Shown here piece by piece: positions 8,926 through 27,911 of a DNA stretch of 28,435 nt (position 1 is the first letter of the stretch; every line of letters begins with the position of its first letter). The translations under genes and the position numbers were made by a program. This DNA comes from a virus (Duplodnaviria; Caudoviricetes), in the IMG/VR virus record IMGVR_UViG_3300027819_000151, positions 1 through 28,435 of that record; one strand, written 5' to 3'. The notes under the pieces are model-generated. The model had not been told where the DNA came from. It searched no databases and saw only the letters and a list, made by a program, of their open reading frames with translations.

Positions 8926-8935
8926 GCTGGATCCC

Positions 8936-10214: not shown

Positions 10215-10239
10215 TCGAGTGTTCCTTTCATCAGGACAT

Positions 10240-10264
10240 AAAAAAAGCCGCTGATTAAGCGGCC
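10240..10264 (-). terminator. Putative intrinsic terminator between tail completion and tail tube genes
   Basis: Minus strand GGCCGC-TTAATCA-GCGGC followed by T7. Confidence 0.55.
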
Positions 10265-10294
10265 AGTGGGATCGCCCGAAGGCGGGTTAAAAAT

Positions 10295-11091: not shown

Positions 11092-11094
11092 CGT

Positions 11095-11424
11095 TCACCC
11101 CGTCAGGATCTGAGACACCGGCAGCGTGAGATATTCGCGCCCGCTTTTTGGATCAGGCAGAACTCCCTCGACCTGGTAAATGTCAGCCCCGTCCACCACG
11201 CGCATGCTCGGCTTGATGTCGGCCAGATAACGAATCTTCACCGTCGCCGTAACCTTCGACTGCGATGCGGCGGCGGCGATGAACTCGCGCGCGGACAGCG
11301 GGCGCACCTCGGCCCAGACGGTTGCGAAGGTGTCCCAACTTTCTGTGATGATGCCGGTGCCGGCGTCCTGCGCGCTTACCAGCGATTGAATCTGCACCGA
11401 ATGAGACAATTTTCCAGCTTGCAT
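11095..11424 (-). CDS. Head closure protein (head-tail adaptor, SPP1 gp16-like)
   Basis: Start MQAGKL.H.V.IQ at 11424. Motifs W..FATVWAEVRPLSARE, KIRY...I...MRV. Confidence 0.92.
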   Translation of the reverse strand: MQAGKLSHSVQIQSLVSAQDAGTGIITESWDTFATVWAEVRPLSAREFIAAAASQSKVTATVKIRYLADIKPSMRVVDGADIYQVEGVLPDPKSGREYLTLPVSQILTG

Positions 11425-11425
11425 T

Positions 11426-12028: not shown

Positions 12029-12618
12029 GCTGCAATCCTCTCGAAAGCAAGCCACGTATTTTCAACATGAACAATCTGCGCTCCCGCAGCGTGAAGTTCA
12101 TCCAACACTTCGCGCACATCTACCGTTCCCAGGTCGTGATAGTCGTGCCAGATCACAATACCGCCAGGTCGTGTCACAGCCCGCGCCAATTCCGTGTCGT
12201 GCAAAATAGCATCGCGACTATGGTCTCCATCGATGAACACCGCGTCGCATGGGTCAAGGTCGGATGCCGATAAGTCGAAAGAACCGCGCGGACGCAGGAT
12301 CAACTCGAATCTCGGATCATCGGCAGCCAACTCGCCCGGCCTGTCTGGAACCTCGTCACGTTGGACGCGCTTGGCGGGAATGTAGCCTTTCGGAACGTCG
12401 ATTCCTTGATAGCGTTCGATCCCCTGAACATTGCGCAGAATTGCCTTTGCCGTTCGTCCGGTATTGCAGCCAAATTCAAGCACTCCCTTTGGCTTGGAGC
12501 TTGCGACCAGCGCAATCAATGCCTCAAGCTCGCCCGGATTCATGTACCGCATTGGTAGGCCGGATAGGTCAACCGATATAACGTCAAGCTGCGATTTGTT
12601 GGCGGTCGGCAATGGCAT
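12025..12618 (-). CDS. Class I SAM-dependent methyltransferase (Methyltransf_24-like, probable O-methyltransferase)
   Basis: VLEFGCNTGRTA (motif I), DAVFIDGDHS, PGGIVIWHDY. Confidence 0.88.
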   Translation of the reverse strand: MPLPTANKSQLDVISVDLSGLPMRYMNPGELEALIALVASSKPKGVLEFGCNTGRTAKAILRNVQGIERYQGIDVPKGYIPAKRVQRDEVPDRPGELAADDPRFELILRPRGSFDLSASDLDPCDAVFIDGDHSRDAILHDTELARAVTRPGGIVIWHDYHDLGTVDVREVLDELHAAGAQIVHVENTWLAFERIAA

Positions 12619-14107
12619 CAAGAAACTCCGTTAAGTACCGCTCAGCGCGTGGCATGTCGATTTGCTTCCGGCAGGCGTGCATCTTGCTGAAACATTCGCA
12701 CGGCGTGATCGGCTGTATCCAATGGCAACGCGGGTCGCCGTGGTCATACAGGCGCGCAGATTCGTGACCGCCAAATACCGCTACCAGCGGCGTCTCGACC
12801 GCCTGCGCCAGGATGATCGCAAAGCCGGGGGAGCAGAACACAAGCCGCGCCTGCGCGGTCAATGCCGCCAACGTTTCGAAATCAAGCTCGCCACGGTGGC
12901 ATTCGGCGTCGGCGCCAATGTCCTGCCCGACCATCCATTCCTTTCGTGGCTCCAAATCGGCAACGGAGACCAAGAAACGGCCTTTTCGGGCGATCTGAGC
13001 CAGTTGCGCGTAGGCTGCATAGTCCGGGTTGCGTTGTGCACATCCTGCCCATTCGGTGCGGTCCACCAGTGGCCGGTAGATCATCAACGGCTTGCCCGGC
13101 TGCCACTTATCGAGCCATTCCTGCGCCTTTTCCTGCCAAGCGTCAGGAATTGGCAGCCGAAAGTCAGCCGGAACCACCTTAACCACGCTATTCGCCGCCA
13201 TCGCCCCAAGGAAGCTCCCGGTGGCGCGGATTTGGTCGTGGCTGTACCAAATTCTCTGCGGCATAACCGCTGGCGGCTTGCCATGAGCGTATTGCCCAAC
13301 CTCGCGCTTCGCGTTCTTGGCCTGCGTCCGTAAAGCTGTAGCTTTAGGCACCAGATGCACCGGCAGATCGTGAAAAACTGAGGGCCAGGGCGTTTCCAGC
13401 CAGACTTCGTGCGTCTGCACCAGTTTTCGCACAATTGCGCGCTCGTGCAGGTTGTCTCCCAAACCGTGCATCCCTTGCAGGTACAGCGGCGGCTTGCCAG
13501 GGATCAAAGCCTTGTCGATCGGCAGGCGTTCAAAACAGGTAATAGCCGTCTGCCGCGTAGCGTTGACTACCTCCACCCCACGCGCCCGAAGATCAATGCC
13601 GAGCTGCACCATCCGCCGCGTCCACTCCGGCATCGTGCCCAGGTTCGGCAGCCCGCCTTCGTGGTCGCCGTGATGATGGCTTTCCCCGCCAGGACCTCTC
13701 TGCATGTCATAACCGAGCAGGATGATCCGCGCTGCGCCCCACAGGTAAGCCAAGCCGATCGCCTGGTAGCCGCTATTTAGTCCGGTGTGAATCCGTCCCG
13801 GCTTGGTCGATAGGCCAGGCTCGTCAACCGCCTCGACATAATTGATACCCGCCATCCGTTCGGCGCACGTCCATAATTCGCTTGTCGTCTGTTCCGCCTC
13901 TGCGCCGTACACTCTCCACCAGCGAGCATCCGAGGCATAGAGCACATCCGCCCACGGCGCTTTCCGAAACGTCGTACAGACCGCGATTACATGCCGGTCT
14001 TGCGGCGCTTGCCCTCGCCATGTTTTGGTAAGTGCAACGTCTGCGTCGGTGAGTGATGGGCCGCTTGCAAGGCAGACAACGGTCGACCCGCGCCATCGTC
14101 CGCCACT
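12584..14107 (-). CDS. Two-domain glycosyltransferase-like protein; 5' part apparently reached by -1 frameshift from the upstream small gene
   Basis: The frame is open upstream of the GTG at 13945 and encodes RWRGSTVVCLASGPSL...VIAVCTTFRKAPWADVLYASD. Together with NSGYQAIGLAYLWGAARIILLGYDM this resembles a DUF115/Maf/sialyltransferase-like fold. The C-terminal half begins GMHGLGDNL (GT9-like GT-B). Confidence 0.75.
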   Translation of the reverse strand, partial: SGGRWRGSTVVCLASGPSLTDADVALTKTWRGQAPQDRHVIAVCTTFRKAPWADVLYASDARWWRVYGAEAEQTTSELWTCAERMAGINYVEAVDEPGLSTKPGRIHTGLNSGYQAIGLAYLWGAARIILLGYDMQRGPGGESHHHGDHEGGLPNLGTMPEWTRRMVQLGIDLRARGVEVVNATRQTAITCFERLPIDKALIPGKPPLYLQGMHGLGDNLHERAIVRKLVQTHEVWLETPWPSVFHDLPVHLVPKATALRTQAKNAKREVGQYAHGKPPAVMPQRIWYSHDQIRATGSFLGAMAANSVVKVVPADFRLPIPDAWQEKAQEWLDKWQPGKPLMIYRPLVDRTEWAGCAQRNPDYAAYAQLAQIARKGRFLVSVADLEPRKEWMVGQDIGADAECHRGELDFETLAALTAQARLVFCSPGFAIILAQAVETPLVAVFGGHESARLYDHGDPRCHWIQPITPCECFSKMHACRKQIDMPRAERYLTEFLDAIADRQQIAA

Positions 14108-14271
14108 TTTCCCACGACTTCCTTGTTCGATTGAGTTGTGAGCTTGATGCGTACCAGCCCGGCGCGCTCAAGGTCCCGTGCAAGACTGTTCTCAAGCATG
14201 ATGGGCCGACCCTCGTTCGCGCTTATGCGACCGTGTACAAAATCGGTGAGAGGAACTACTTCAACTTGCAT
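13987..14271 (-). CDS. Small capsid-adjacent protein (94 aa), putative head-associated module
   Basis: GGAG RBS then ATG at 14271. MQVEVVPLTDFVHG...EGRPIMLENSLARDLERAGLVRI resembles the small proteins that follow HK97-type capsid genes. Basic, low-complexity tail. Confidence 0.75.
   Translation of the reverse strand: MQVEVVPLTDFVHGRISANEGRPIMLENSLARDLERAGLVRIKLTTQSNKEVVGKVADDGAGRPLSALQAAHHSPTQTLHLPKHGEGKRRKTGM
14058..14113 (-). other. Putative programmed -1 frameshift signal: G GGA AAA plus H-type pseudoknot
   Basis: Heptamer at 14113-14107 is in frame (GTG GGA AAA). Stem GGCGGACGATGG/CCGTTGTCTGCC is 12 bp with 3 G-U pairs. Loop GGGTCG can pair with downstream CGGCCC. SD-like AAGGAAG lies just upstream. 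Confidence 0.75.
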
Positions 14272-14285
14272 GTGCGCATCTCCAG

Positions 14286-14322
14286 AAAAAAAGCCCGCCA
14301 GGCAATCACGCCCGGCGGGCTT
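14286..14322 (-). terminator. Intrinsic terminator after the major capsid gene
   Basis: Minus strand AAGCCCGCCGGGC-GTGATT-GCCTGGCGGGC followed by T7. Confidence 0.85.
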
Positions 14323-14339
14323 CGTCATGCCACTGCGAA

Positions 14340-15536
14340 TTACGACCCGACCAGGTCGGCGTTCTTGACGAACGCTTCCGGCCGATAGGTCGCCAAAGCG
14401 AGGCGCTCTTCGCAGCGAATGGTGATCATGTTCTTCACGAAATCGTCTTCGTTTTGCGTTGCGATCACCACGTTGATCTCTTCACGATCGAAGAGTTGAG
14501 CGCCCATCTCGAACGCGCCGACGAGGGCGGTATCGACGGTCATCGCTTGCGTTGTCACCGCCGGACGGCCCCACAAGGAGGGTGTCGCCAGCGATTGCGG
14601 GTTCGCAAAGATGTACGCGCCAGTGCTTTCTTTCGTCAGCTCGATCGCAGCCCAGTCCGCCGGATTGAGAACGATTCCGGTTGCAGGGTACTCGGCGAGT
14701 TCCGACTGGAGAAGCATCAGCCGCAACACGTCGATTTTGGTCGGCGACGCAACCACAATTGGCGCGCTGTACGCGGTGGCTTGCGTATAGATGCCGTTCA
14801 GGTTGTTGCCGGAGCCAGAGCCCTTCAGCAACTGCGCCTCCTCCACCAACTTCAGGCCGTAACGCAAGCGGCCGTCGATGTTCGACTGGAGTTGAAGGAA
14901 GTCATCCAGGATCTGCTTCGATGCCTTGATGAAATGCGCGACCGTAACGACAGGCGACTGCACCCATTCGTAGGTGATGGTCGATTCCGGCTTCTTGACG
15001 GTCTCCGAAACCGTTGCAGCATTGTTGGTAAAGCCCGTTTCCCGAACATAGGAGATCATGTTCGATCCGGTGCGGCCCGGAGTGATGAGATCGCGCACGC
15101 GCAAACGCCGCTGTGTGCCCGGGACCAGGGGCTGTTGATCGGGCGCAACGCCAACCGTCGTAGTGTTGGTCGTATCGACGCTGGTGATCGCGGCCTTGAT
15201 CTGGTAGAGGAACCCGGACTGAACCGAGCGCATCCCACCGGACTCCAGCCACGCCTTGAACTCCGGCGACTCGGTAACATGCGCACCGAGCGAACGCACC
15301 GCGGCGATCTCATTGGCGCCGCGCCTCGCCGCTTTCTGCTCGACCTCGAGCAGCCGCGCCTGCAGCTCGCCCTGCTTGATCAGCAGTTCGTCAACTTTCG
15401 GCTTCATTTCCGCAGACATGTCGCCGTGTTTCTTGGCCTCGGCCAGCGCTTTTTCACCGGCCTCCTTGACCTGGTCGCCGATCTTTTTCAGTTCGGCCTT
15501 TACATCGTCGATCGTAAATTCGTTTGGTGCACCCAT
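14340..15536 (-). CDS. Major capsid protein, HK97 family
   Basis: 398 aa with coiled-coil delta domain. Motifs RLRVRDLI..G.T, E...KPES, ASKQILDD..QL, FVKNMITIRCEERLAL..YRPEAFV. Confidence 0.97.
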   Translation of the reverse strand: MGAPNEFTIDDVKAELKKIGDQVKEAGEKALAEAKKHGDMSAEMKPKVDELLIKQGELQARLLEVEQKAARRGANEIAAVRSLGAHVTESPEFKAWLESGGMRSVQSGFLYQIKAAITSVDTTNTTTVGVAPDQQPLVPGTQRRLRVRDLITPGRTGSNMISYVRETGFTNNAATVSETVKKPESTITYEWVQSPVVTVAHFIKASKQILDDFLQLQSNIDGRLRYGLKLVEEAQLLKGSGSGNNLNGIYTQATAYSAPIVVASPTKIDVLRLMLLQSELAEYPATGIVLNPADWAAIELTKESTGAYIFANPQSLATPSLWGRPAVTTQAMTVDTALVGAFEMGAQLFDREEINVVIATQNEDDFVKNMITIRCEERLALATYRPEAFVKNADLVGS

Positions 15537-15546
15537 GATGGGCTCC

Positions 15547-16410
15547 TTATAGCGAAAATGATTTGATTGCCAACATCAGTTCAGTTGCCTCGGCAGCGTT
15601 TTGCGTGCCGTTTCCAGTAGCGTTTTGCGTACCGGCCCCGGCAGCGCAAGGCGTGCCGGTCTTGAATTCTTGGAGCATGGCTCTGCGCTCGCTTCGGGGC
15701 ATTCCAGCCTTCGCCAGCGCCATGTCGAGCAGAAAAGCCGCAACGCGGTCACCCTTGGCGTTCGCGTCCTTTTTCACTTCGTCCGCCGGCAGTAAGGCAT
15801 CAGCGAAGCCTTGATCGACAGCCGCGGTTCCGCCAATCCATGTTTCGGCGTCCATCATTTTTTGCACGGCCTTTGCTTCAAGCCCGCTGCGCGCCGCATA
15901 GATGTCAGCCATCGCGGTGTCGAACGGCTCCAGCGTGTCGGCGATGTCGCGCAAATCCAGCCGGTTGCCGATTGCGACGACCCAAGTATCGTGAATCATC
16001 AGAAAGCCAGCACGCGCGATCAGCACTTCGTCGCCGGCCATCGCGATGATCGAAGCCGCTGACGCGGCAATACCGAGCACCTTTACCGTGACGCTGCCCT
16101 TGTGATCGCGGAGCAGGTTGTAGATCGCCATCCCCTCGAACAAATCGCCGCCGGGAGAATTGAGGTTGACGACCACATCCTTTTCCGCACCGATGGAGCG
16201 CAGCGCCGCGGCGATCCGCTTCGTTGTAACGCCTTCGCCGGTCCAGGGGTCTTGGCCGATGGGGTCCAGAATCGAGATAGTGTTATCAACAGCCGGCGCA
16301 GCCGCCATCAGGTCCGGCGTCCACCGCTCCAGCGCCTGGGGGGCAAGTTCCCACTGGAGGCCGTTAGGGCGCTCTATCTGTCTGGCTTGCGGCATGGTGC
16401 GTTTAAGCAT
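15547..16410 (-). CDS. ClpP-type head maturation protease
   Basis: Start MLKRTMPQ at 16410. Motifs LNSPGGDLFEGMAIYN, AASAAS.IAMAG, FLMIH, MDAETW, GFAD. Confidence 0.95.
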   Translation of the reverse strand: MLKRTMPQARQIERPNGLQWELAPQALERWTPDLMAAAPAVDNTISILDPIGQDPWTGEGVTTKRIAAALRSIGAEKDVVVNLNSPGGDLFEGMAIYNLLRDHKGSVTVKVLGIAASAASIIAMAGDEVLIARAGFLMIHDTWVVAIGNRLDLRDIADTLEPFDTAMADIYAARSGLEAKAVQKMMDAETWIGGTAAVDQGFADALLPADEVKKDANAKGDRVAAFLLDMALAKAGMPRSERRAMLQEFKTGTPCAAGAGTQNATGNGTQNAAEATELMLAIKSFSL

Positions 16411-16414
16411 GGTT

Positions 16415-17728
16415 CTACTCCTTGGCCGGAGAGCCGGCAGTTGTGGGTTCAATCCCGAGCCACGCCTTGAGCGCGTTCTGCGCACCCTGAGCAGCCGCAT
16501 TGGTGCCTTGGTTCATGTCGTCAATGTCCACCATTGCACTCTGTACTGTGAGCACCGCGGCATTGCCGCCCATCGGCGCCAGGTTCTCAAGCTGCCGGCA
16601 CTCGTCGCGGGTGTAGATTCCGACGTTGACCATGCTCGAATAGAACGCGGCGCGCGAGGTGCTGTCGGCGCGCAGCAGGCCCTCCAGGTTGAAACTGGCG
16701 AAATACGTTTTCCGCTCCACCGGCGTGAGCAGGTTTTTCCTCACCGCCTGCTCGATGCGCACGCACCAATGCCGCAGCGTGAACGTGAGAAACCAGATCA
16801 TCTTTTGCTCAAGACCGGTGCCCCAGTTCGAGTCCTTGCCGCCGTGTCCGATCATCGCCGGATCGACGCGATACCAGCGGCACATCTCCTCGACGTTGAA
16901 TGACCGGCTCGCCAGCAGTTCGGCTGACACCGGATCGAATCCGAGCTTTTGAAATCCGGTGCTTTTTTCGAGCACCATCACGCCGCCGGAATCGGAAACG
17001 CTCTTGACGTGCGCGCGGATCTCCTCGCGCTGCTCTTTTTTCAGAATCGCGTCCATCGTCACGATGCCGGGTGAGCGCATTGCGCCTTGGAACGTCTCGG
17101 CGCTCGCCTTGTCGGTCTCGATCGACGTGCCGAACACGTTTGCACCGTAGGCAATCGGCGACAACCCGAGCACGCCGTCGGTAGAAAACGCCGGGATGTG
17201 CATCAGGTTCGCTTCCGGGATAACCCGTTCCGCGCCGTCGCGGTAGCGATACTCCCATGCGCCGCTCGGCAGGCGGCGAATGATCATGCGCGCGGGCAGT
17301 AGAAAGTGCAGCGAGATGACCGACTTTCCGCTGCGGATTATCTCAATGTACGCATTGCCCCAGAGCAGCATTGAGGCAACCACTACCTCCCAAAACACGG
17401 CCGCCGTCATGTCGGCGTTCGGCTGATCGTGCAGAATCGTGTACAGGTCGTGCCCAGTTGCCGGCGTGCGCGATCCGTCTGCGTTGCGCTGATAGAAGCG
17501 AAACGGAAGCGTGGCCAGCGTCTCCGAGATTAGCCGCACGCACGCCCACACGGTCGCGAGTTGCAGCGCCTTATCCACACTGACACTCTTGCCGGTAAAT
17601 GATCCGGTGCCCGCCCACTCGCGCCAGAATGCGCCATCCTGCAGGCTGATTGGCACGCCGAGCCAGCTTTGCAGCGCGGCCCGGATGGCGGACTTGATTC
17701 GGCCCGGACGCTTTTCTATGGTCTGCAT
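16415..17728 (-). CDS. Portal protein, HK97 family
   Basis: Start MQTIEK at 17728. Motifs VWACVRLISE..A.LP, QPN..MT...FW, LLWGNAY, GLSPI, NLEGLLRAD, T.DE.R..ENL.P. Confidence 0.96.
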   Translation of the reverse strand: MQTIEKRPGRIKSAIRAALQSWLGVPISLQDGAFWREWAGTGSFTGKSVSVDKALQLATVWACVRLISETLATLPFRFYQRNADGSRTPATGHDLYTILHDQPNADMTAAVFWEVVVASMLLWGNAYIEIIRSGKSVISLHFLLPARMIIRRLPSGAWEYRYRDGAERVIPEANLMHIPAFSTDGVLGLSPIAYGANVFGTSIETDKASAETFQGAMRSPGIVTMDAILKKEQREEIRAHVKSVSDSGGVMVLEKSTGFQKLGFDPVSAELLASRSFNVEEMCRWYRVDPAMIGHGGKDSNWGTGLEQKMIWFLTFTLRHWCVRIEQAVRKNLLTPVERKTYFASFNLEGLLRADSTSRAAFYSSMVNVGIYTRDECRQLENLAPMGGNAAVLTVQSAMVDIDDMNQGTNAAAQGAQNALKAWLGIEPTTAGSPAKE

Positions 17729-17739
17729 CAATGTTTCGC

Positions 17740-19491
17740 CTATGCCATGATCGGATTTGCCAGGAAATCGTCGAGACTGCCTTCGGGTTCTGCCTGTTGC
17801 ATCACGCCGATGGCCATGAACAGTGCAGCCGCATCGTCTATCTTGTCGGCGCTGCGCTTCCTGTCCGGCGCCATGTTCATGTTCTCGTCGCGCCGGGGCA
17901 CCACGTTCGAAGCGCACCAGTTGAGCACCGCATCGCCTCCGTGCCGCAGGTTTCCAGAGAGATACAGCCGCTCGGTCTCAATCATTGCCGGGTGATACGA
18001 CTTCGCCCCCTGCCTAAATTCTTCAAGCGGCAATTCTGCCGCCTGGAGCCGGTTCACCAGGTCGCGAAGATTCCAAGGGTCGTAAGCGATGACCTTCGGC
18101 GTGAATCGGTGGGCGAGTTCAACAATGTCTTTTTCTACAAACGCGTAGTCGATAACCTTCCCTGGAAGCTGCGTTATCAACCCCGCCGCCACCCATCCCG
18201 CATACGGCACTGTCCCGCGCTCGGTGCGCTGCGCAATGGCTTCAACCGGCACCCAGCGCCGGCCCCACGTGTAGACGATGCCATCGACACGCCAGATTAA
18301 GCGGAACGCCATAAGGTCGGTCGTTGCCGCACCATCAAGCCCGGCCCAGCAGTCCTTGCCTTCAAGGAACTTGAGATCGACCGGCCCGTTGCAGCGCTTC
18401 CAGCGCTCGATATTCAGCCACGTATTCGCCGCCGCGGCCTGCCGATTCAGCCGCTTGATCTTGAACTCGGCGTGAGTGCCCGGCATCTGCTTGGCTTCGA
18501 TCGCGGCCTTGCGGATCTCGCGCTCCAGGATCGGATTGACCTCCATCAGCGGATTCGCCTTCGGCCATTTCGATTCGTCGAAGTCGTCGTCGGCCGGCCT
18601 GTAGTCCGATTCGCCAGGCTGACTTACCTGTTCGTCTAGCGCGAAGATCAGCATGAAAAAGTGATCGGCCTCAATCAGCCCGCTCAGCACCTGCTGCGCG
18701 AACAGCCGCATTTCAGGCCACGGCCCGGGCGTCTCGTAACCCTCTGTGGTGGTGTACAGCCACAGCGCATTGAGGCGCGCGCCGGCGGCAGATTTCAGCA
18801 CGTTCAGCAGGTCGTGCGTCTTGTGGGCGTGGATCTCGTCCAGCGCCGTGTGCGATGGATTCAGCCCGTCCTGCGTTGAAGCGTGGGCGTTGATCGGCTT
18901 TAAGTTGCCGCCCACCTGCCAGTTCGTGATCGCGTTGGCGAACACCTCCAGGTTGAAGGCGTCGCGCAAGTCATGGGTTTGCTCGACCATCTTCTTCGCG
19001 ATGTTGAAGATAATCCGAGCTTGGTCTCCGGTCGTCGCGGCAGTGATGACCTGCGGGCCAGGTTCGTCCTCATAGCAAAGGCAATAGAGCAGGATCGCCG
19101 CCGCGAGCGTGCTCTTAGCGTTCTTGCGCGCGACAGCGAACAATGCGCTCGTGAATCTCCGCGTGCCGTCCGGGTTCCTGAATCCGAACAGGTTGACCAG
19201 GAAAAAGATGTGCGACGCGTGCAACACGATCGTCGGCGTCGCCCACTTGCCTTCGACGTGCGGGAGCTGCTCGATGAATTGGCAGACCTCGTTCGCATGG
19301 ATCAATGAAAACTTGAACGGCCCGCCTTTCGTCGCTGCCCGCTTGCGGTCCTTCACGTAGCGCGACGCGGCGAGCCTGACCCATTTTCCGTGCCGCTCGC
19401 CATCGGCGTCAGCCAGCGCGTCGCGCGCGAAGGTATCGGCAATTGCTACAAAGTCACGCGCGGCGGCTCGAGTCCTTTTTTTTGCCGCCAT
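17740..19491 (-). CDS. terL: Terminase large subunit
   Basis: Walker A variant VARKNAKST, DGLNPS...LDEIH, W.KANP, GLD, AYDPW, KIDD..ALFMA. Confidence 0.97.
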   Translation of the reverse strand: MAAKKRTRAAARDFVAIADTFARDALADADGERHGKWVRLAASRYVKDRKRAATKGGPFKFSLIHANEVCQFIEQLPHVEGKWATPTIVLHASHIFFLVNLFGFRNPDGTRRFTSALFAVARKNAKSTLAAAILLYCLCYEDEPGPQVITAATTGDQARIIFNIAKKMVEQTHDLRDAFNLEVFANAITNWQVGGNLKPINAHASTQDGLNPSHTALDEIHAHKTHDLLNVLKSAAGARLNALWLYTTTEGYETPGPWPEMRLFAQQVLSGLIEADHFFMLIFALDEQVSQPGESDYRPADDDFDESKWPKANPLMEVNPILEREIRKAAIEAKQMPGTHAEFKIKRLNRQAAAANTWLNIERWKRCNGPVDLKFLEGKDCWAGLDGAATTDLMAFRLIWRVDGIVYTWGRRWVPVEAIAQRTERGTVPYAGWVAAGLITQLPGKVIDYAFVEKDIVELAHRFTPKVIAYDPWNLRDLVNRLQAAELPLEEFRQGAKSYHPAMIETERLYLSGNLRHGGDAVLNWCASNVVPRRDENMNMAPDRKRSADKIDDAAALFMAIGVMQQAEPEGSLDDFLANPIMA

Positions 19492-19951
19492 CGATTAGTT
19501 CCAGAAAGCGATTCGTTTTTTTCTTCGCCCCAGCGGGAGAGACACGCGAGCGCGAGGATGGCGTCATGCCGAACTCGGTTTCCGCCTTGTGCATCTGCTC
19601 CTGCGCCTTGTTCGAGACAGCCAGGTACGGGTTCTGAATCGGAAACCCGGACGGCGAAATCAGCACCTCGCCCTGCTTTGCGACCATGCTCTCGGCCACG
19701 AGATAGCGCCCGCACGCCTGGCAATAGCGCGCGAACGCATTGAGATCGATGTCGGTGATCATGTTGTTGCGGACGAGCTTCGGAAACTCAATCGCCCACG
19801 CCGCGCGCGCCTCCCCGCTCAGCCACGCCGGCGGTTTCAGCGTTTCATCGACGGCGTCAGGTTGCGGCTCGGCCTCGGGTAGCGGGCGGTGTCCTGGATG
19901 ACCGGCGAGCAATTTGAGATGCGTCGGTTTTGGTTTTCGGCCTGCTCGCAT
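19454..19951 (-). CDS. terS: Terminase small subunit, P27 family
   Basis: GRKPKPT.LK.L.G.PG.RPL, PP.WL, YCQ, QNPY, EFGMTPSSRSR. Confidence 0.95.
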   Translation of the reverse strand: MRAGRKPKPTHLKLLAGHPGHRPLPEAEPQPDAVDETLKPPAWLSGEARAAWAIEFPKLVRNNMITDIDLNAFARYCQACGRYLVAESMVAKQGEVLISPSGFPIQNPYLAVSNKAQEQMHKAETEFGMTPSSRSRVSPAGAKKKTNRFLELIDGGKKKDSSRRA

Positions 19952-20335: not shown

Positions 20336-20340
20336 GCGGA

Positions 20341-20704
20341 AAATGGATGTAGTCCCTGACGTGCGCCGCGATTCGCTAGCGCCTCACATCCAAAGGAACG
20401 TGCTATCTGGCACCACGATTAGCTCTGACGAAATGAACAGCTATCGCCAGCTTGTGCGCCTTGGTTACATACACGGCATGAGGTTAATCACCACAAAGAC
20501 GAATATGTGAATGGTATTCACCACGTCAACGGCATAGAGGGCTTTTGGTCGCACCTGAAACGTGGGATCAAAAGCACTCACGCTTCTGTGTCACCGAAAT
20601 ATCTACAGCGGTATGTAGATGAATTCGCGTTCCGCTACAACAACCGGCAAGCGCCCGCCGCTATGTTTAGCAGGATGCCGAAGCAGTTTTCCAAGCCAAA
20701 CTAA
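20341..20704 (+). pseudogene. IS1595-family transposase remnant (5'-truncated, frameshifted)
   Basis: VPDV.R.SL.PHI..NV..GTTISSDE..SY..L...GY.H, then a frameshift near 20480, then VNH..DEYV.G..HVNGIEGFWSHLKRGI..TH..VSPKYLQRYVDEFAFRYNNR. Confidence 0.9.
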
Positions 20705-20923: not shown

Positions 20924-21775
20924 TTAGCTCTCTCGATTAAATTCCGCAGAATAATAATGCTTGCGCGTTACCCATTTGAAACCTTCGTGCTTAGTAATAG
21001 TTGCCACTTCAATTGGCCCGCCCACAGTGGGTGCTCGTAAACTAAATTGCGTGAATTTTGCAGCAGTATCAGCAAGAAAGTAAGCCAAATCTATTGCATC
21101 CTGGATTGGCATTGCGGGTAAATGTAGCGGTACACATAGCTTGTTTATTAATTCATCCCTTGTATCAGTGGCGATCTTAGGATCAAGCCCAAGCTGCACC
21201 AATGCCTCATGAGCCCGACTTCCCAAGCCAAGAATTAAACGATCAAGAGCCTCGGTCTCACCTGCCCAACGAGGGCCAAAATGACTATCTTCATAAATTC
21301 GGTTGGGGCCTTCGCATTTGTCTCCATTAATCAGTATCTCCCACACTTCTGGTAATACTGATCCAGCAGAATATCCGCAAACTCTGTATCCCATGTAATA
21401 GTTTGGAACACCGTTTGGATATTCCTTAACGTAACATTCGTCAAACAAAAATTTCTTGGCTTTCGCTGCCACATCTTCAATCGTGTAAGACATCGGGTCA
21501 AGTTCATATTCCCCCTTCTGGTAATGCGGTGCCATGAATTGCGGGGGCGTAAGCTTTTCCCGAAGGTCTTTTGACAGGGTAGCAATCGACGCCGAACCTA
21601 TACCGCCACTACCGTATGTCATAGCCCCTATCGGCCAAACTTTGACAAGATTGAATATTTTGTTGGCATTGTTGTAAACCTTTACAACGGCACCAGCAGG
21701 ATCAACAAACGAAGTCGCGCTATCAGCGGCAAGAACAACACCGTCATTAACTCTAATTGTGACGACTATCGTCAT
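20924..21775 (-). CDS. Proteasome beta-subunit-like Ntn hydrolase (Thr1 protease)
   Basis: Start M-T-IVVTIRVNDGVVLAADS (Thr1, LAADS), NANKIF (catalytic Lys position), C-terminal TVGGPIEVATI. Confidence 0.8.
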   Translation of the reverse strand: MTIVVTIRVNDGVVLAADSATSFVDPAGAVVKVYNNANKIFNLVKVWPIGAMTYGSGGIGSASIATLSKDLREKLTPPQFMAPHYQKGEYELDPMSYTIEDVAAKAKKFLFDECYVKEYPNGVPNYYMGYRVCGYSAGSVLPEVWEILINGDKCEGPNRIYEDSHFGPRWAGETEALDRLILGLGSRAHEALVQLGLDPKIATDTRDELINKLCVPLHLPAMPIQDAIDLAYFLADTAAKFTQFSLRAPTVGGPIEVATITKHEGFKWVTRKHYYSAEFNRES

Positions 21776-21950
21776 GGGGTCTTTGAGGAAAAGACGTGGA
21801 TTTCGACCCCAATATAGCATCGTCTAGAAGCTGCTCAAACGCCTTCTTGTGGTCTAGCGATTCCGCAGGATCGGGAAGGCACTTAGGTTTCATCCGTTTC
21901 GGCAAAACCTTTCTTTTTACTTCTTTTTTTGGCTTCAGTCCAGCCCCCAT
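21753..21950 (-). CDS. Small basic hypothetical protein (65 aa)
   Basis: Lys/Pro-rich N-terminus and helical HKKAFEQLLDDAI. Overlaps the start of the protease gene. Confidence 0.5.
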   Translation of the reverse strand: MGAGLKPKKEVKRKVLPKRMKPKCLPDPAESLDHKKAFEQLLDDAILGSKSTSFPQRPHDDSRHN

Positions 21951-22061
21951 GTCTTTGATAGTAAACAGCTAATTTATGCAAACCGCCGCAATTTGTAGTA
22001 GGCTTTACCCATTACTTGTACTCAAGTATTTTTTAACCACATGATTTGGTAGGAGAACCTC

Positions 22062-22076
22062 ATGAGGAAAGTTTAA
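22062..22076 (+). other. Minigene ATG AGG AAA GTT TAA with strong RBS
   Basis: AGGAGA at 22051-22056, 5 nt before the ATG. Followed immediately by a GC-rich hairpin at 22077-22116. Confidence 0.4.
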
Positions 22077-22182
22077 GCCTTCGCGTCCCACGCGGGACAC
22101 CACCGACGCGAAAGGCACAAAAAGTAAGACCCGCATAAGCGAACTCTTGGCGGAGAACTTATACGGGTCTTGGTGGCGCAAC

Positions 22183-22250
22183 GGGGCGGGTTTGGTAACG
22201 GGGAGAGACTCCTAATCACTGACCCAAGGGTTCAATTCCCTTCCGCTCCA
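22183..22250 (+). tRNA. Non-canonical tRNA-Arg(CCT)-like RNA
   Basis: Acceptor GGGGCGG/CCGCTCC plus A. T arm AAGGG-TTCAATT-CCCTT. Anticodon arm AGAGA-CTCCTAA-TCACT (one mismatch). Shortened D region GTT-TGGT-AAC. 68 nt. Confidence 0.6.
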
Positions 22251-22326: not shown

Positions 22327-22467
22327 ATGAGCAAGAAACAAGGCAACGAAACAACTGGCAAGAAAGCTGCAAGCAATGCGGGTAAGGTTCTCAATAACCC
22401 TAACTCGTCTAAGGCCGCGAAGTCTGCTGCCGCTTCTGCTTTAACCCAGGTATCGAAGAAGAAGTAA
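22327..22467 (+). CDS. Small basic protein (46 aa)
   Basis: Below the ORF-track cutoff. AAGGA RBS. MSKKQGNETTGKKAASNAGKVLNNPNSSKAAKSAAASALTQVSKKK resembles a widespread small hypothetical family (T.K.AAS.A.KVL..P..SK..KS.A.SALTQ). Confidence 0.8.
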   Translation: MSKKQGNETTGKKAASNAGKVLNNPNSSKAAKSAAASALTQVSKKK

Positions 22468-22481
22468 GCGTAGTTTGTTTT

Positions 22482-22526
22482 AGCACAGCAACGCGGGGTA
22501 TCACTATTACCCCCGTTGCTTGTGCT
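22482..22526. terminator. Long hairpin between convergent genes, probable terminator
   Basis: AGCACAGCAACGCGGGGTA-TCACTAT-TACCCCCGTTGCTTGTGCT. Confidence 0.6.
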
Positions 22527-22563
22527 TCATCCTCTACATCGGCTACGTTCGGGGCCAACGCAA

Positions 22564-23283
22564 TTACATCGTCACCGCCGTCGCCTCTGGCACGATCTTC
22601 TCCGCGTCGAGTGCGCTCACCGCGAGTTCAGCGAGGAGCCGCAGTGCGACCGCGTTGTTGATCACTTTCTTTTCCTGCTTGACGCGCACGATTGCATCGA
22701 AGAGCGCATTGAACGTCGCCAACTCACCGACCAGGACCTGCGCCTTCTTGCTCGCCTCGATGCGCGCGAGGAAATCGATGAAAGCCGTTTTCTCCTCGGG
22801 CAGAAAAAGGATCGTCAGTTCCTCGTATTTCGGCCGCGTGATGCCGAGGGCCGCGAGCTTCTCGTCGGTGCACTTGAAGGCGTCGTCGGTGACGCCGCTA
22901 TATTGCTTCCACTCCAGCGACTTCATGCTGGTATAGAGCTGCGCCAGGATGTTCGGGTCGTCCTTGCCGTTGATCGCGTTCTGCGACAACTGGATCGCCA
23001 GGCGCCGTTCTTCGCTCAACTCGCTCAGAACGTCCAGCACGTCGGCCTCTTCGATCCCAGCCTTGATCGCGGCGCGCACGCGGTGATTGCCGCTCAGCAC
23101 TTCGCCGCGATAGACGACTGGCACACCCATCAGCTTCCCGTCCTGCTTGATGTTGGCGACGAGCTGGCTAAACTCCTGCGGCGTCATGTAGCGCGCGTTC
23201 TTCTCCAGCAGCTTCAACTCGCGCAGTTTGACCTTGACGATCCGGCTTTCCACCTTGTCCAGCGTATTTTCGGAGCCATTCAT
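22564..23283 (-). CDS. ParB/Srx-like N-terminal domain protein
   Basis: ELK.LEKNARYM....F..LV.NI..DG, P.V, VLSGNHRVRAA...G, LS.NAI.G.DDP. Confidence 0.88.
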   Translation of the reverse strand: MNGSENTLDKVESRIVKVKLRELKLLEKNARYMTPQEFSQLVANIKQDGKLMGVPVVYRGEVLSGNHRVRAAIKAGIEEADVLDVLSELSEERRLAIQLSQNAINGKDDPNILAQLYTSMKSLEWKQYSGVTDDAFKCTDEKLAALGITRPKYEELTILFLPEEKTAFIDFLARIEASKKAQVLVGELATFNALFDAIVRVKQEKKVINNAVALRLLAELAVSALDAEKIVPEATAVTM

Positions 23284-24544
23284 TGAACACTTCCTGGATA
23301 GATTGGTTGCGAATTGACGACTGGTACTGCAGGTGATCGGCGGTGCGCTTGGCCAATTCGAATATCCCGCGGTACTTCATGGAAACGGGCTTGGTCGTGA
23401 ACGCCGTGGTCACGATGTATTCGACCCTGATCAGCAGCCGGCGGTTGATCGGATCGATCACGTCCCGGCAGGCCGCGATCATCGGTATCAGTTTCGATAG
23501 CCTGCGTTCACGCGAGACTGAGAAATCCGAGAGCATGTAAAGCTCGCGCGTCTTATCGCCGAATCGCGTTTGCGCGAAGATGAATCCGCCGGCAAGCGCG
23601 CCATCGATCAGCACCAGGCAGTTGAACTGGCCGGTTGTGTGTTCAATGCCTTTGGCGAGGTAGACGTTTTTCAGATACGTCATCCGTTTGCCATCGACGA
23701 CGCACACAGATACCTTGCTCTCGGCCGTAATCGCGGCAGGATCGACCGCGGCGTATTTGAACTGCACTTCATTCGGCAGCCGGCGCCGCAGCGACGCGGC
23801 CTGATTGCTCGAATAGGTATAGACCGGCTTGTTCGAGCCGCGCCATTCCGTTGTCGGCGTGCGATCGGCGAGCAACTGATCCGAGATCACGCAGTACGGA
23901 ATACCCCGCTGCTCAAGCGAGGCGATGAACCCCGGCAGCGAATCGGGATTCCAGATTCCGTATTTCGGCGCGGGCCAGTCGACGTTTTCGTTCACGAGCT
24001 TGTAGATCCGCTCATAGCCGCCTTTGTAGGTCGGCGCAAAGCACGCGACACCGCCACCGCTGCGTTCGGCCCGGTCCACCTGCTCGGTGAAGTCGCCGGG
24101 GTAGAACTCCTCGATCTTGATTTCCGACACCAGCGTCGCGAGCTTGGGCAGCGCCTGATCCACGAACGTCCTGAAGCGCTCACGGTAGTGTCGGTAGTGC
24201 ACCTGGGCGTACTCGTTCTTGCCAGTGAACTGGCCCATCGCGCACGCCACCATCACGGCCGCCACGCGCCCACGGAAGTCCAGGCCGGCGATTGCGGGTT
24301 CGACGAACTCAAGATCGCCCTTGAACCGGATATCGAACTCGCGCCCCATCGCGAGTGCACCGATGCTGCAGGTGAGTAGCGACACGTCGTTCGAATAGAC
24401 GCGGCAGCCGGGGTGCCGCATCTTCACCGCGCGATCAAAGCGGAAGCTGCCCGAACACCCCACATACACGTCGCCCCACTCATCAAACGGCACCGTGGCG
24501 AGCACCTGTCCGACGACCTCTTTTGGGACGGCGCCGATGAACAT
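23168..24544 (-). CDS. Putative DNA-modification enzyme: adenine methyltransferase-like N-terminus plus GNAT/Mom-like C-terminus
   Basis: DVYVGCSGSF (motif I-like), SNDVS (motif II-like), FAPTYKGGYE (DPPY-like). C-terminal LVLIDG.LAGGFIF..LYMLSDF.V...RRLSKL...TTAFTTKPVSMKYRG.F. Confidence 0.65.
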   Translation of the reverse strand: MFIGAVPKEVVGQVLATVPFDEWGDVYVGCSGSFRFDRAVKMRHPGCRVYSNDVSLLTCSIGALAMGREFDIRFKGDLEFVEPAIAGLDFRGRVAAVMVACAMGQFTGKNEYAQVHYRHYRERFRTFVDQALPKLATLVSEIKIEEFYPGDFTEQVDRAERSGGGVACFAPTYKGGYERIYKLVNENVDWPAPKYGIWNPDSLPGFIASLEQRGIPYCVISDQLLADRTPTTEWRGSNKPVYTYSSNQAASLRRRLPNEVQFKYAAVDPAAITAESKVSVCVVDGKRMTYLKNVYLAKGIEHTTGQFNCLVLIDGALAGGFIFAQTRFGDKTRELYMLSDFSVSRERRLSKLIPMIAACRDVIDPINRRLLIRVEYIVTTAFTTKPVSMKYRGIFELAKRTADHLQYQSSIRNQSIQEVFNEWLRKYAGQGGKPDRQGQTARVEAAGEERALHDAAGV

Positions 24545-24582
24545 TTTGCCCTTTACCGTTTGTCGGAAACTTAAGTAACTTG

Positions 24583-24610
24583 TTGATTATTAACGTATAT
24601 ATGCTATACT
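24583..24610 (+). promoter_or_regulatory. Sigma70-type promoter (extended -10)
   Basis: TTGATT-16 nt-TATACT with TG-n before the -10, in an AT-rich patch ahead of the plus-strand operon. Confidence 0.7.
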
Positions 24611-24890
24611 TCACTCAAGGCCAAGAGCTTCTTGGCTGAGCCGGCCCGACCCGCCGCCTGAGGATCAAAGCACCCAGACGGAAACGACCAGAACATCGGC
24701 CAAGCGGGGGACACCCGGAAAATCAAACGAACAAAAGGGACGGCGCTCGTACCGCCGTCCATTCCAATGCCCTTGCGCGAGCGAGGGTGTCGGAATACCG
24801 CGCCAGGCGGCTCCCTGGAAAAAGCGAAGCCCCGGACGGCTTGGAACCGACCGAGGCTTCTGACCAAACCAAACTGCAAAGGAGTTTGAA
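24611..24890 (+). ncRNA. Candidate structured leader RNA
   Basis: About 280 nt without a credible ORF, containing at least five hairpins separated by A/C-rich linkers. Confidence 0.4.
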
Positions 24891-25214
24891 ATGGCTGTCC
24901 AAAGTGTAACCCAATCAGAAGCGCTCCAACGGGCGCGCAACAGCAATAGCACCGCCAACTTCAGCGCGATCTTCGAGGGATTCGAGTCCAAAGGAATCCC
25001 GGCGGCAGAAATCGAGCCGCGCGTCAACGTCCTCACCTATAACGCTTGGCTGGCTCTTGGCCGTCAGGTGCGCCGCGGTGAGCACGGTGTCAAGGTCTGC
25101 ACCTTTGTCTCAATGACCAAGAAGAACGAGTCCGGCGTAGCCGAATCGATTGGTCGGCACCCGCGCGGAGTCACCGTTTTCCATGTTTCACAAACCGACC
25201 CGGTGCAAGCATGA
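24891..25214 (+). CDS. ArdC-like N-terminal ssDNA-binding domain protein (stand-alone)
   Basis: AAGGAG RBS. Motifs [26 protein letters not shown]. Confidence 0.85.
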
Positions 25215-25690
25215 GCACCAGAGTCCTGAATCAAGAAACCGGCGCTTACCTGTCCGACGACGACGTGATCAAGATGGCGGTCTCCATCATCAATCACCGC
25301 TTCGGGCTCAAGCGCGCGTCGCTCAATTCGCCAAGCATGGTCCGCGACTACCTTCAACTCACGTTGACCGGCAAAGAGCACGAAGTTTTCGCGTGCGTGT
25401 TCATCGATGCGCAGAACCGCGTCATAGCGGTCGAGGAACTATTCCGTGGCACTCTGACGCAGACCAGCGTCTACCCGCGGGAAGTCGTTAAGTCCGCGCT
25501 GCACCACAACTGCGCGGCCGTGATCTTGGCGCATAACCACCCAAGCGGCGTGGCCGAGCCCTCACACGCTGACCAGTGCCTCACCACCAGCCTCAAGCAG
25601 GCCCTGGCCATGGTGGATGTGAAAGTGCTCGACCACTTCATCATCGCCGGCGGTTCGGCTCTGTCCTTCGCAGAACGGGGGCTGATATGA
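25211..25690 (+). CDS. radC: RadC-like JAB domain protein
   Basis: EHEVF..VF.D..NRVI..EELF.GTL....[33 protein letters not shown]. Confidence 0.95.
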
Positions 25691-26394
25691 GCGACGTCCG
25701 GGACAGAATCACCAAGCTCCTCGCGATGGCGACCCACGAGCGCAGCAACGAACACGAAGCAGAAACCGCCATGAGGATGGCCGAAAGGCTGATGCGTCAG
25801 CACAACATCGACGCAGCCGACCTCGAGGCCGCAACCGGCAAGCAGACCGTCTACACCTGGGCTTCCGCCACGATTGCCATCGGCGAAAAAGCCAAACCCA
25901 TGAGCTGGCGCCCGATGTGGATCGGCTTCCTCGGCATGGGCGTCGGCACATTTTGCGACTGCAAGGTGATCTGGTCGACGGATGCGACCTACGGCCACTG
26001 CATCAAATTCATGGGCGACGAGGCAGATATCGAATACTGCGCTTGGCTGTTCAAAAAGCTGCGCGATTTCGGTTACGCCGAATCCAAATCAGTCGCCGGA
26101 AAGCACCGCGACACCTTCCAAAAAGCCTACGCGCTCCGCTTGATCGACCGCATGAAAAAGCTGCGCGCCGAACGTGACGTAGCCATGAAAGCGGCAGTCA
26201 CGAAAACGGGCACCGCGTTGATGGTGGTGCAAAACAAACTGGTGCTGCGTGACGCGCAATTCGGTAAGCAGCGCCACGGCCGTACCAGCCGCGTCAGATT
26301 CGCAAGCGACGGATTCACCCAGGGCCGCGCCGCAGCGGAGAAGGTGAATTTCAGCCGTCCGATTGGCTCAAGCGGCCAGCGGCAGATTTCGTAA
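25687..26394 (+). CDS. DUF2786 domain protein
   Basis: Start [15 protein letters not shown]....NEHEA..A..MA..LM.QHNI. C-terminal GF.QGRAAA..V. Confidence 0.88.
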
Positions 26395-26450
26395 CAGCAC
26401 TCGAATATCCCAAGGGCCTCGCCCTTGGGCAACCTTATAGGAGCTTCAAA

Positions 26451-27449
26451 ATGGCACACGAAATTGATTTCAGCAACAAGCGCGCGAACATGGCCTACGT
26501 CGGCGAAACGCCCTGGCACAGCCTGGGTGCGAAACTTCCGGCCGGCGCAGATATGGAAACCTGGCGCAAAGCCGCCGGCCTCGATTGGGAAGTGGTCGAA
26601 ACCCCGGTTATGTTCCAAGACGGCACGCCCCCCGCGTTCCATGAATTCCCGACGCAAAAGGTGTTGCTGCGCAGCGACACGCGCGCGCCGCTCTCGACCG
26701 TTTCGAAGTGGTACAACACCGTCCAGCCGGGCGAAGTGCTCGGCTTCTTCGACGAGCTGGTCAAGTCTGCCGGTTTTCAGCTTGAGACGGCTGGCTCGCT
26801 TCGGGGCGGTAATCGAATCTGGGCGCTCGCCCGCGTCGGCGAGGATGCCAAGATCATTGACGGCGACATGGTCCGTCCGTACCTCTTGCTCGCCACCAGC
26901 TACGACGCCTCAATGGCGACCACGGCGCAGTTCACGAGCATCCGGGTGGTCTGCAATAACACCCTCACCGCAGCCGTCGGCGACAGCAAGCGCGGCGTGA
27001 AGGAAGGCGCGGCAGAGCCGAAAGTAAAAATTGCGCACCTATCCAAGTTCGACGCCCAGGACGTGCGCGAGCAGTTGACAATCGCCGTCTCCGGTTGGGA
27101 CGAGTTCATCATCAAGAGCCGCCTGATGGCACAGGCACCGCTGGACGAGGAGCTGGTCGACGCCTTCCTGCTCAATCTGTTCAAGACGAAGCGCGATGAT
27201 CTCGTAGCGGCCGAGAAAGCGCGCAACACGAAAGGCTACAAGCGCGTGCTGGAACTGTTCAACGGCGCAGGCGCGGGCAGCGACATGGCCGGCAAAACGG
27301 TCTGGGGCGCCGTGAACGCGGTCACGCAATACGTTGACCACGAGCGCGGCAACAAGCGCGAAACCGGGCTCGACGCCGCATGGTTCGGCGAAGGCGCCAC
27401 CTTGAAGGATCGGGCGTTCTCGATTGCCAAGGAGCTTGTGCTCGCCTAA
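26451..27449 (+). CDS. DUF932 domain protein (phage/plasmid-related)
   Basis: MAHEI...MAYVG.TPWH.LG, AGLDW.V, LETAGSL.GG..IWALA, YLLLATS.D, T.IRVVCNNTL, T.WG.VNAVT.YVDH. Confidence 0.93.
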   Translation: MAHEIDFSNKRANMAYVGETPWHSLGAKLPAGADMETWRKAAGLDWEVVETPVMFQDGTPPAFHEFPTQKVLLRSDTRAPLSTVSKWYNTVQPGEVLGFFDELVKSAGFQLETAGSLRGGNRIWALARVGEDAKIIDGDMVRPYLLLATSYDASMATTAQFTSIRVVCNNTLTAAVGDSKRGVKEGAAEPKVKIAHLSKFDAQDVREQLTIAVSGWDEFIIKSRLMAQAPLDEELVDAFLLNLFKTKRDDLVAAEKARNTKGYKRVLELFNGAGAGSDMAGKTVWGAVNAVTQYVDHERGNKRETGLDAAWFGEGATLKDRAFSIAKELVLA

Positions 27450-27458
27450 CGCGAAAAC

Positions 27459-27530
27459 TGGAGCGGCCCTGCCGAATCGAACGGCAGCGGTTGCCCTGGT
27501 GGAACCAGAACGACTTTCCCAATTAGCCGC
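27459..27530 (-). ncRNA. Non-canonical tRNA-Gly(TCC)-like RNA with encoded CCA
   Basis: GCGGCT-AATTGGGAAA-GTCGTTCTG-GTTCCAC-CAGGGCAAC-CG-CTGCCG-TTCGATT-CGGCAG-GGCCGC-T-CCA, 72 nt. Confidence 0.6.
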
Positions 27531-27548
27531 AAAACGAAAAGGACGGAC

Positions 27549-27911
27549 ATGAAAACAGCATCGTTTTTCACTTACTTCGGCCCAGGCCGGATCTCGATCG
27601 CGCGCGCCACACCGCGCAACACGCCGGTCGGCTACCGGATTTATAAACCACTCGCGCCGGGGCCGTGGTTCAACAGCGTGCCCGAAGATATGTACCGCGA
27701 GCTCTATTTCGACCAGCTTGGGCAGCTTAACCCGCCCGGTGTCGTGGCTGCGCTCCACGCGCTAGCCGTCGGTGCCGAGCCAGTCCTGCTCTGTTGGGAA
27801 AAGCCGCCGTTTCACAGTGCTAACTGGTGTCACCGCCGCATGGTCGCCGAGTGGTTCAAGACCACGCTCGACCTGGACGTGCCAGAAATCGGGGAACCCG
27901 ATCATGGCTAG
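27549..27911 (+). CDS. DUF488-like protein
   Basis: ISIAR.TP, LAP, Y..LY..QL..L.P, VLLCWEKP....CHRR.VAEW. Confidence 0.8.
   Translation: MKTASFFTYFGPGRISIARATPRNTPVGYRIYKPLAPGPWFNSVPEDMYRELYFDQLGQLNPPGVVAALHALAVGAEPVLLCWEKPPFHSANWCHRRMVAEWFKTTLDLDVPEIGEPDHG

Follow-up and report, generated by a model that had tools for sequence, protein, structure and literature searches.

A conserved minigene–pseudoknot leader precedes a compact tRNA-like RNA predicted to carry alanine and to read the minigene's own rare arginine codon

A stretch of viral DNA of 28,435 nt (the window) holds, within 200 nt, a minigene whose second codon is the rare arginine codon AGG and, after two hairpins, a small tRNA-like RNA whose CCT anticodon matches that same codon. 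Is this match coincidental and, if it is not, what might a transcript that carries both a rare codon and its reader do? The window is a contig of a tailed phage or prophage (terminase and capsid genes; 239-19951 and 22564-27911), and the unit sits in a low-GC patch 3' of a broken IS1595 transposase. The preliminary description of the locus listed a Shine-Dalgarno sequence (SD), the minigene, both hairpins and a tRNA-like RNA with CCT; all of these are present (Table 1), and the leader is conserved in 18 others. The string AGGAG-ATG-AGR occurs once in the whole window, both strands considered, and AGG makes up 16 of the 341 arginine codons in 20 prophage genes. The window had no Rfam match, hence no known ribozyme or riboswitch was found in it.

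Table 1. Features of the unit and its neighbours, in positions of the window
Feature	Position	Strand	Remarks
IS1595-family transposase remnant, broken	20340..20704	+	PF12762, E 2e-14 on 20507-20704; likely carrier
Shine-Dalgarno AGGAGA of the minigene	22051..22056	+	Read from the sequence; SD-like motif before the start in 18/19 leaders
Minigene ATG-AGG-AAA-GTT-TAA	22062..22076	+	Codon 2 is the conserved rare Arg codon
Pseudoknot stem 1	22077..22116 (arms 22077-22087, 22105-22116)	+	Stem 2 has its 5' strand in this loop (22098-22104)
A-rich linker of the pseudoknot	22117..22125	+	A-rich in 18/18 aligned leaders
Stem 3, a long hairpin within the loop of the pseudoknot	22126..22171	+	z -3.7, 1/200 shuffles
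Stem 2, 3' strand of the pseudoknot	22172..22178	+	Pairs with 22098-22104 in the hairpin 1 loop
Compact tRNA-like RNA	22183..22250	+	68 nt, anticodon CCT, CCA not encoded
46-aa basic protein	22327..22467	+	Frequent, non-obligatory downstream partner; after 9/19 leaders

Nineteen leaders were found in total, the window's included, the leader being made up of ribosome binding site, start, codon 2 and three-stem pseudoknot, and an intact tRNA-like RNA of 66-70 nt follows 15 of them. Seven units came from a search pattern for the RNA, with both acceptor strands fixed and a short D region; in these the acceptor is conserved by construction of the pattern, and one of them (L037) is the window's own sequence. 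This pattern matched 18 viral loci and at least 120 metagenome loci (39 of 64 metagenome parts), and among the matches listed SD-ATG-AGG/AGA lay 120-128 nt upstream in 7 of 117 distinct contexts. In most other contexts the compact RNA was of the same family but had a different anticodon and no minigene, and some contexts held ordinary tRNA fragments. The remaining 12 were reached through the leader: BLAST with the L054 unit identified two in 401 genomes from the order holding an Accumulibacter record, and leader-only covariance models identified ten more genomes with a leader (overlapping draws). An intact RNA followed 8 of these 12. The leader model had no match in 151 alphaproteobacterial, 151 acidobacterial and 5 mixed genomes, which are samples and not proof of absence, and BLAST of the unit against phage and plasmid records gave no relevant match. 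A pattern scan of GTDB (38 of 64 parts) gave no unit among the matches listed (at least 120, of which 110 had fewer than 8 of 10 pairs). Three further viral scans yielded no unit, and L329, examined from the seven loci of a fourth, is not one. The RNA-side pattern applied to 216 genomes returned five units, all already known, along with 19 chance matches.

These homologs bear directly on the match between codon and anticodon. The combinations of codon 2 and anticodon in the 15 intact units are AGG/CCT (10), AGG/TCT (2) and AGA/TCT (3), with no AGA/CCT. A CCU anticodon is limited to AGG, and UCU pairs with AGA and can also read AGG by wobble; codon 2 is therefore readable by the unit's own RNA in all 15. 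The coupling has P=0.022 over the 15 units and P=0.066 if L028/L092 are counted once, the small number of units being the limit on both values. The minigene and the first anticodon base were left out of the tree, 9 of whose 16 inner branches have weak support. It places L325 (AGA/TCT) and the window (AGG/CCT) as sisters with support of 100/98, and L028 and L092 (AGA/TCT) elsewhere; at least two independent paired switches thus took place. Codon 2 is AGG or AGA in 17 of the 19 leaders. The arginine codon is kept in 15/15 leaders with an intact RNA and lost, to ACA, in two leaders with no detectable RNA (P=0.035 over 19). The preliminary description had allowed that the match could be coincidental and had proposed a homolog search as the check. 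In that comparison the minigene is kept and the AGG/AGA codon and CCT/TCT anticodon change together, and so a functional link between minigene and RNA is strongly supported. With codon 2 readable throughout and at least two paired switches, the aligned units indicate that the match is not chance.

What kind of RNA is it? ARAGORN did not call it as a tRNA and called no tmRNA, and the Rfam tRNA model scored the RNA at 24.4 bits, the gathering score being 29. The window copy has a 7-bp acceptor (including G1-C72, G2-C71, G3.U70 at 22185/22247 and G4-C69) with A73 at 22250, a D hairpin of 2-3 bp, a long bulged anticodon arm with the loop CTCCTAA at 22209-22215 (CCT at 22211-22213), a 5-bp T arm at 22226-22242 and no variable arm. 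Covariation supports a 7/5 acceptor/T branch, and an 8/4 branch can be drawn for some copies only. G1-C72, G2-C71, G3.U70 and A73 are present in 15/15 intact RNAs, with pairs 4, 5 and 7 varying with compensation (G4-C69 in 13/15), and the same invariant set holds in 8/8 RNAs that were found by the leader alone. The RNA letters of the independent groundwater contig X4 read C4-G69 with compensated T-stem pairs, and G3, U70, A73 and CCT are unchanged. U33 and A37 occur in 15/15 anticodon loops; some copies have weak anticodon stems and odd T loops.

The available text of PMC9976931 gives A73, G2-C71, G3.U70, G4-C69 and G20 as bacterial alanine identity and A20 as the main determinant for E. coli ArgRS. 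GGA is found in the D region of 0/15 RNAs and the arginine determinant A20 cannot be placed; 9/9 host tRNA-Arg genes, selected by that motif, carry GGATAGAGC. Because G3.U70 and A73 are invariant, the D arm is vestigial and A20 is not placeable, we predict from these elements that the RNA is an alanine acceptor reading an arginine codon and not a tRNA-Arg; the label tRNA-Arg(CCT)-like given to it earlier does not hold. As for a canonical tRNA-Arg, A20 in a regular D loop and the cloverleaf of the standard model were not found, and C35, U/G36 and A/G73 were. The elements of the arginine set that the RNA has are A73, G2-C71, C35 and U36, and the presence of C35, U36 and A73 makes charging with both alanine and arginine possible.

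The compact RNA family also stands without a minigene, often behind a simple hairpin, and at least five such stand-alone RNAs have CCT or TCT anticodons (L003, L034, L073, L105, L119). Separately, six stand-alone compact alanine-type RNAs (L025, L081, L019, L026, L047, L021) have, by eye, the stop-reading anticodons TTA or CTA and are followed 30-40 nt later by transposase-like genes, TAG being the stop codon in five of these. Three short RNAs (L018:1501-1566, L038, L082) we take to resemble the lone tRNA-like domain of tmRNA.

The leader forms an H-type pseudoknot of three stems and an A-rich linker, in which the loop of hairpin 1 pairs with bases 3' of hairpin 2. Over 18 leaders 89.9% of cells pair, with two-sided changes at 18 of 21 pairs, versus 31-47% in slid controls, a comparison biased in favour of the model, which was drawn from the same sequences. 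Two-sided changes occur in five of the six pairs of stem 2, the knot helix, and in all ten counted pairs of stem 3, and the stem 1 hairpin has z -3.4 (0/200 shuffles as stable). A competing GTCCC/GGGAC pairing had been noticed in the window; it is indeed present there but is not conserved, as 22096 is changed in both related contigs and L325 has an imperfect version of it. The additional pairing that is conserved belongs instead to the pseudoknot, 22098-22104/22172-22178, and in two related contigs a change at 22177 makes stem 2 pair perfectly. Relative to the A of ATG, stem 1 begins at +16 in seven leaders, the window among them, at +19 in nine, at +18 in two and at +14 in one. Since an initiating ribosome covers the mRNA to about +15, the knot would permit initiation and, once codon 2 has been read, the ribosome would reach it in one or two steps. 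The minigene start overlaps the stop of a long upstream gene in 6/19 leaders.

No U-tract terminator was found on the plus strand before the RNA; stem 3 is terminator-like when read on the minus strand. Folding tests revealed no consistent switch, and a comparison of knot-intact with knot-melted folding, biased by masking, gave five up, one down and eight equal. A scheme in which the ribosome frees the acceptor stem from the SD was rejected, as five of seven cases were no different from shuffled heads.

Several copies place the unit inside insertion sequences. L321, L323 and L336 carry it within complete IS1595 elements that have inverted repeats and show target duplications of 8 bp, the right end in L051 and L056 is similar (6 and 4 of 24 positions mismatched), and contig X4 joins the transposase end, a different passenger and the unit. 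A matching right inverted repeat was not found in the window with up to six mismatches allowed, and no IS1595 was seen in the flanking DNA examined of the remaining copies. We interpret the unit as a conserved cargo cassette of IS1595-type mobile elements, and the window copy as a remnant in a prophage.

Small genes lie downstream of most units, and their identity varies freely between units. The 46-aa protein belongs to a widespread family (1764 matches) and was rejected as an obligatory partner given its frequency after the leaders (Table 1) and the absence of the unit from all 32 viral loci with its homologs. A non-decoding role for the compact RNA would draw on these neighbours: the RNA would serve the downstream passenger gene as a signal for processing or stability, or would act as a decoy for toxins that cut tRNA, and tuning of the downstream gene would fall to the minigene. 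The small genes after most units, the weak anticodon stems and odd T loops of some copies, and the inactivity in translation of some allo-tRNA(UAU) in the available text of PMC5389517 agree with such a role. We consider it improbable, as it leaves the joint codon/anticodon switches and the conservation of U33 and A37 unexplained and the downstream genes vary freely.

Other features of the neighbourhood are listed here as observations. The window has two passengers between transposase remnant and unit: a 283-aa protein (20924-21775, minus strand) with a faint proteasome-subunit match (E 0.2) and no PADLOC match, and a 65-aa ORF (21753-21950, minus strand) that is retained in contig X4, where the larger passenger gene is replaced. 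Further window genes are DAM-like/GNAT, ParB-like, ArdC, RadC and DUF932, and the head genes include one methyltransferase and a weak glycosyltransferase match. A small phage-type gene is present as a 3' remnant on the minus strand at 22409-22558, and a strong hairpin at 22482-22527 (z -6.4 for 22470-22530) overlaps its coding strand; an intact relative stands after the unit in L321. DUF5343 matches were found in two of the scanned upstream genes (L051, L056), and a relative of these upstream of the L323 unit (L353:7351-8049) matches the PADLOC candidate PDC-M34A (E 6e-9). L336 (G033) has a 270-nt insert, with a 48-codon ORF and short flanking inverted repeats, that splits the leader from the RNA.

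We then compared the unit with known systems. Phage lambda bar is a toxic minigene that likewise has a rare codon at +2 of a very short ORF, of two to four codons in this class; it is not known to have a conserved pseudoknot or a tRNA-like RNA linked to it. In tmRNA, the tRNA-like domain has an alanine acceptor stem, no regular D stem and alanine as the rescue residue; unlike tmRNA, the unit's RNA has a true anticodon loop, lacks a message domain or tag and is only 68 nt long. The CreT toxins of CreTA (Haloarcula hispanica, Halobacterium hubeiense) are closer to the leader, having an SD, a start, a rare AGA/AGG right after the start, a short ORF and a stable structure 3'; the available text of PMC8501985 names an SD, a start, a pair of rare codons and a stem-loop among what CreT needs and reports that the cognate tRNA relieves their toxicity. 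The unit has the strong SD, the efficient start and a stable downstream structure in its pseudoknot, but two consecutive rare codons are absent from the window. Such tandem arginine codons occur in 7 of the 15 intact units, and the other 8, including the window (AGG-AAA), have one; the unit further differs from CreT, as described there, in its three-stem pseudoknot, the cognate decoder on the same transcript and its place as insertion-sequence cargo. No CRISPR-derived CreA was seen; a scan of 16 window proteins gave no Cas family, Rfam had no match to the window, and homolog flanks were judged by eye. The toxic AGA minigenes of PMC2490762 share a two- to four-codon ORF with a rare codon at +2, and in its available text they come with neither a conserved pseudoknot nor a linked tRNA-like RNA.

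The RNA, for its part, recalls the allo-tRNAs (PMC5389517; review PMC7609411), which combine alanine (G3.U70) or serine identity with unrelated anticodons, including those for AGA/AGG, and which, like irregular tRNA polycistrons, occur near transposons and toxin-antitoxin genes. Alanine identity with a non-cognate anticodon is found in 15/15 RNAs of the unit. The allo-tRNAs described there have 8/4 or 9/3 branches and a long variable arm, whereas the unit's RNA is 66-70 nt long with a 7/5 branch, a vestigial D arm and no variable arm, and no cognate minigene was seen in the available text of the two papers. Identity and anticodon also disagree in the tRNA-ProX of Streptomyces, for which a stress benefit from mistranslation has been proposed; it has a proline-tRNA body and a dedicated ProRS, and the available text of PMC10404621 shows neither minigene nor pseudoknot. 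Because defining features of CreT, allo-tRNAs, tRNA-Arg and tmRNA are each missing, the unit could not be filed under any known family on its sequence. Neither an IS1595 element with a tRNA-like RNA nor a unit of tRNA-like RNA, minigene and pseudoknot was found in titles, abstract openings and open full text; the allo-tRNA supplement, with its locus figures and sequence sheets, could hold related RNAs. Within that scope, the pairing of minigene and pseudoknot, with co-variation of codon and anticodon, appears to be the new part.

Four of the 19 leaders are without a working decoder, and these copies help to weigh the possible functions. L304 retains SD-ATG-AGG and the knot with the anticodon arm of its RNA deleted. 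L327 (G625) has AGA-AGA with no nearby stop, then a gene of canonical tRNA-Arg type that has decayed and whose anticodon loop is 8 nt long. L305 (G077) and L328 (G547) are unrelated leaders with ACA at codon 2, an intact knot and no detectable tRNA-like RNA (L328 has a doubtful tRNA-like remnant with no profile match); their ACA may reflect decay or retargeting to a threonine tRNA. In addition, contig X14 (242 nt, depth 2.7) has a leader followed by a short hairpin in place of the RNA. The preliminary description had suggested an RNA-only toxin/antidote pair. Minigene and pseudoknot would form a CreT-like trap for tRNA-Arg(CCU/UCU), on blocked ribosomes or as peptidyl-tRNA, and the compact RNA would be a cheaply charged decoy feeding the trap, the loss of which (e.g., by phage-triggered tRNA decay) would arrest the cell. 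This has the best precedent of the models considered (CreT, PMC8501985; PMC2490762), in that the SD, start, rare arginine codons and stable stem are those of tested toxins as the available text describes them. The L028 minigene, ATG-AGA-AGA-TAA, corresponds to AUG-AGA-AGA-UAA, which in the available text of PMC2490762 is the strongest tRNA trap among AGA minigenes and has the most peptidyl-tRNA-Arg4. L305 and L328, in which the RNA is not detectable, lost the arginine codon that 15/15 intact units keep, and toxin-antitoxin-like genes adjoin several units (by eye, from translations). We nevertheless find it doubtful: L304 and L327 retain their arginine codons with a damaged decoder, tandem arginine codons are confined to the minority of units noted above, and both parts lie on one transcript, where the antidote would be expected to be the stable partner. 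An alanine-charged antidote would also mistranslate host AGG codons.

Codon use was counted in genes around the units. The co-oriented upstream genes of seven CCT units contain 1 AGG and 10 AGA among 79 arginine codons, compared with 9 AGG of 55 upstream of three decoder-less units and 12 of 68 in three IS1595 transposases (P about 0.001); against the prophage genes (16/341) the AGG deficit is not significant (P=0.11), and it rests on seven partly related genes. The AGA/AGG share of arginine codons is 11/33 in 10 downstream ORFs and 14/117 in 10 upstream genes (P=0.007); the counts are for intact units, of which five lacked an ORF under the rule applied. The upstream proteins gave no sign of constitutive AGR-to-Ala recoding, with alanine opposite AGR at 9.7% and opposite CGN at 10.5%. 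The three IS1595 transposases share AGG at three arginine columns; a decoder serving the element's own transposase was rejected, as six other arginine columns are equally invariant (in three related genes) and also because alanine is the wrong residue at arginine columns.

The avoidance of AGG upstream is what a toxic RNA might leave behind. In this case the compact RNA would be a deliberate Arg-to-Ala missense suppressor that serves addiction, or abortive infection directed at phage genes rich in AGG/AGA, with the minigene-pseudoknot as its brake or sponge. Its alanine identity is invariant with a non-alanine anticodon, induced allo-tRNAs of mixed identity killed E. coli (PMC5389517, in the text available), and the RNA is the part repeatedly lost or collapsed to a hairpin (L304, L305, L327, L328, X14), as toxins often are. 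We think this unlikely, since at least five CCT/TCT RNAs stand without the minigene, a sponge would trap host tRNA-Arg equally, and with a vestigial D arm decoding may be weak. The canonical tRNA-Arg-type scaffold of the L327 partner, a single decayed case, points instead to supply of an arginine-codon reader. The upstream AGG avoidance fits the rivals as well as it fits a sensor.

We tentatively favour, and could well be wrong in favouring, a leader that acts as a one-codon sensor gating release of an alanine-charged AGG decoder. A ribosome would initiate on the minigene, coupled in 6/19 leaders to the stop of an upstream helix-turn-helix-type gene, with the pseudoknot starting just past it. 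If AGG is decoded promptly, the ribosome would enter stem 1, the precursor would be unfolded or turned over and little RNA would mature. When cleavage, sequestration or draining makes tRNA-Arg(CCU) scarce, the ribosome would wait at codon 2 with the knot intact, and the RNA would be excised by the normal tRNA-processing enzymes and receive its CCA. AlaRS, blind to the anticodon, would then charge it, alanine would be inserted at AGG, stalling would be relieved and the leader shut off, at the cost of Arg-to-Ala errors. We prefer this sensor because the RNA stands without the minigene, some orphan leaders retain the arginine codon, and two ribosome states follow from the geometry. As the compact RNA exists widely without it, the leader seems to have been added as a control, and the persistence of the four decoder-less leaders with their structure intact is what a harmless sensor would allow. 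A leader sensing tRNA-Arg(CCU) depletion and controlling tRNA supply had been the second suggestion of the preliminary description; sensing fits slightly better than toxin/antidote because two of the four decoder-less leaders keep the arginine codon, but the RNA is predicted to carry alanine and so cannot simply top up tRNA-Arg. Gating through RNA stability or processing is something we infer, since no terminator or folding switch was found. Several points speak against the sensor. Hosts own the relevant tRNA-Arg (CCT and TCT in four of five genomes tested, TCT only in the fifth), so supply would matter only under stress; rescue by a tRNA that accepts arginine would be free of errors; and alanine at the three AGG columns shared by the transposases would probably do harm.

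Common to the viable models is that ribosomes would read one rare arginine codon against a pseudoknot, and that the same transcript would yield an alanine-type reader of that codon. On balance we incline to the view that the unit is a protein-free module of pseudoknot minigene and alanine-charged decoder, an RNA-only toxin-antidote or sense-respond circuit with co-evolving codon and anticodon, through which mobile elements would switch conditional Arg-to-Ala recoding of AGG/AGA on or off upon attacks on tRNA. A 67-nt RNA missed by ARAGORN and by the Rfam threshold would then be under selection for decoding, and the leader would offer a 130-nt sensor for the depletion of a single tRNA. Irregular tRNAs of alanine or serine identity, whose role near transposons and toxin-antitoxin genes is left open in the available text of PMC5389517, would gain a testable purpose. 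If true, this would be a natural tRNA-like RNA paired with its own cognate minigene, with mistranslation placed under codon-specific feedback.
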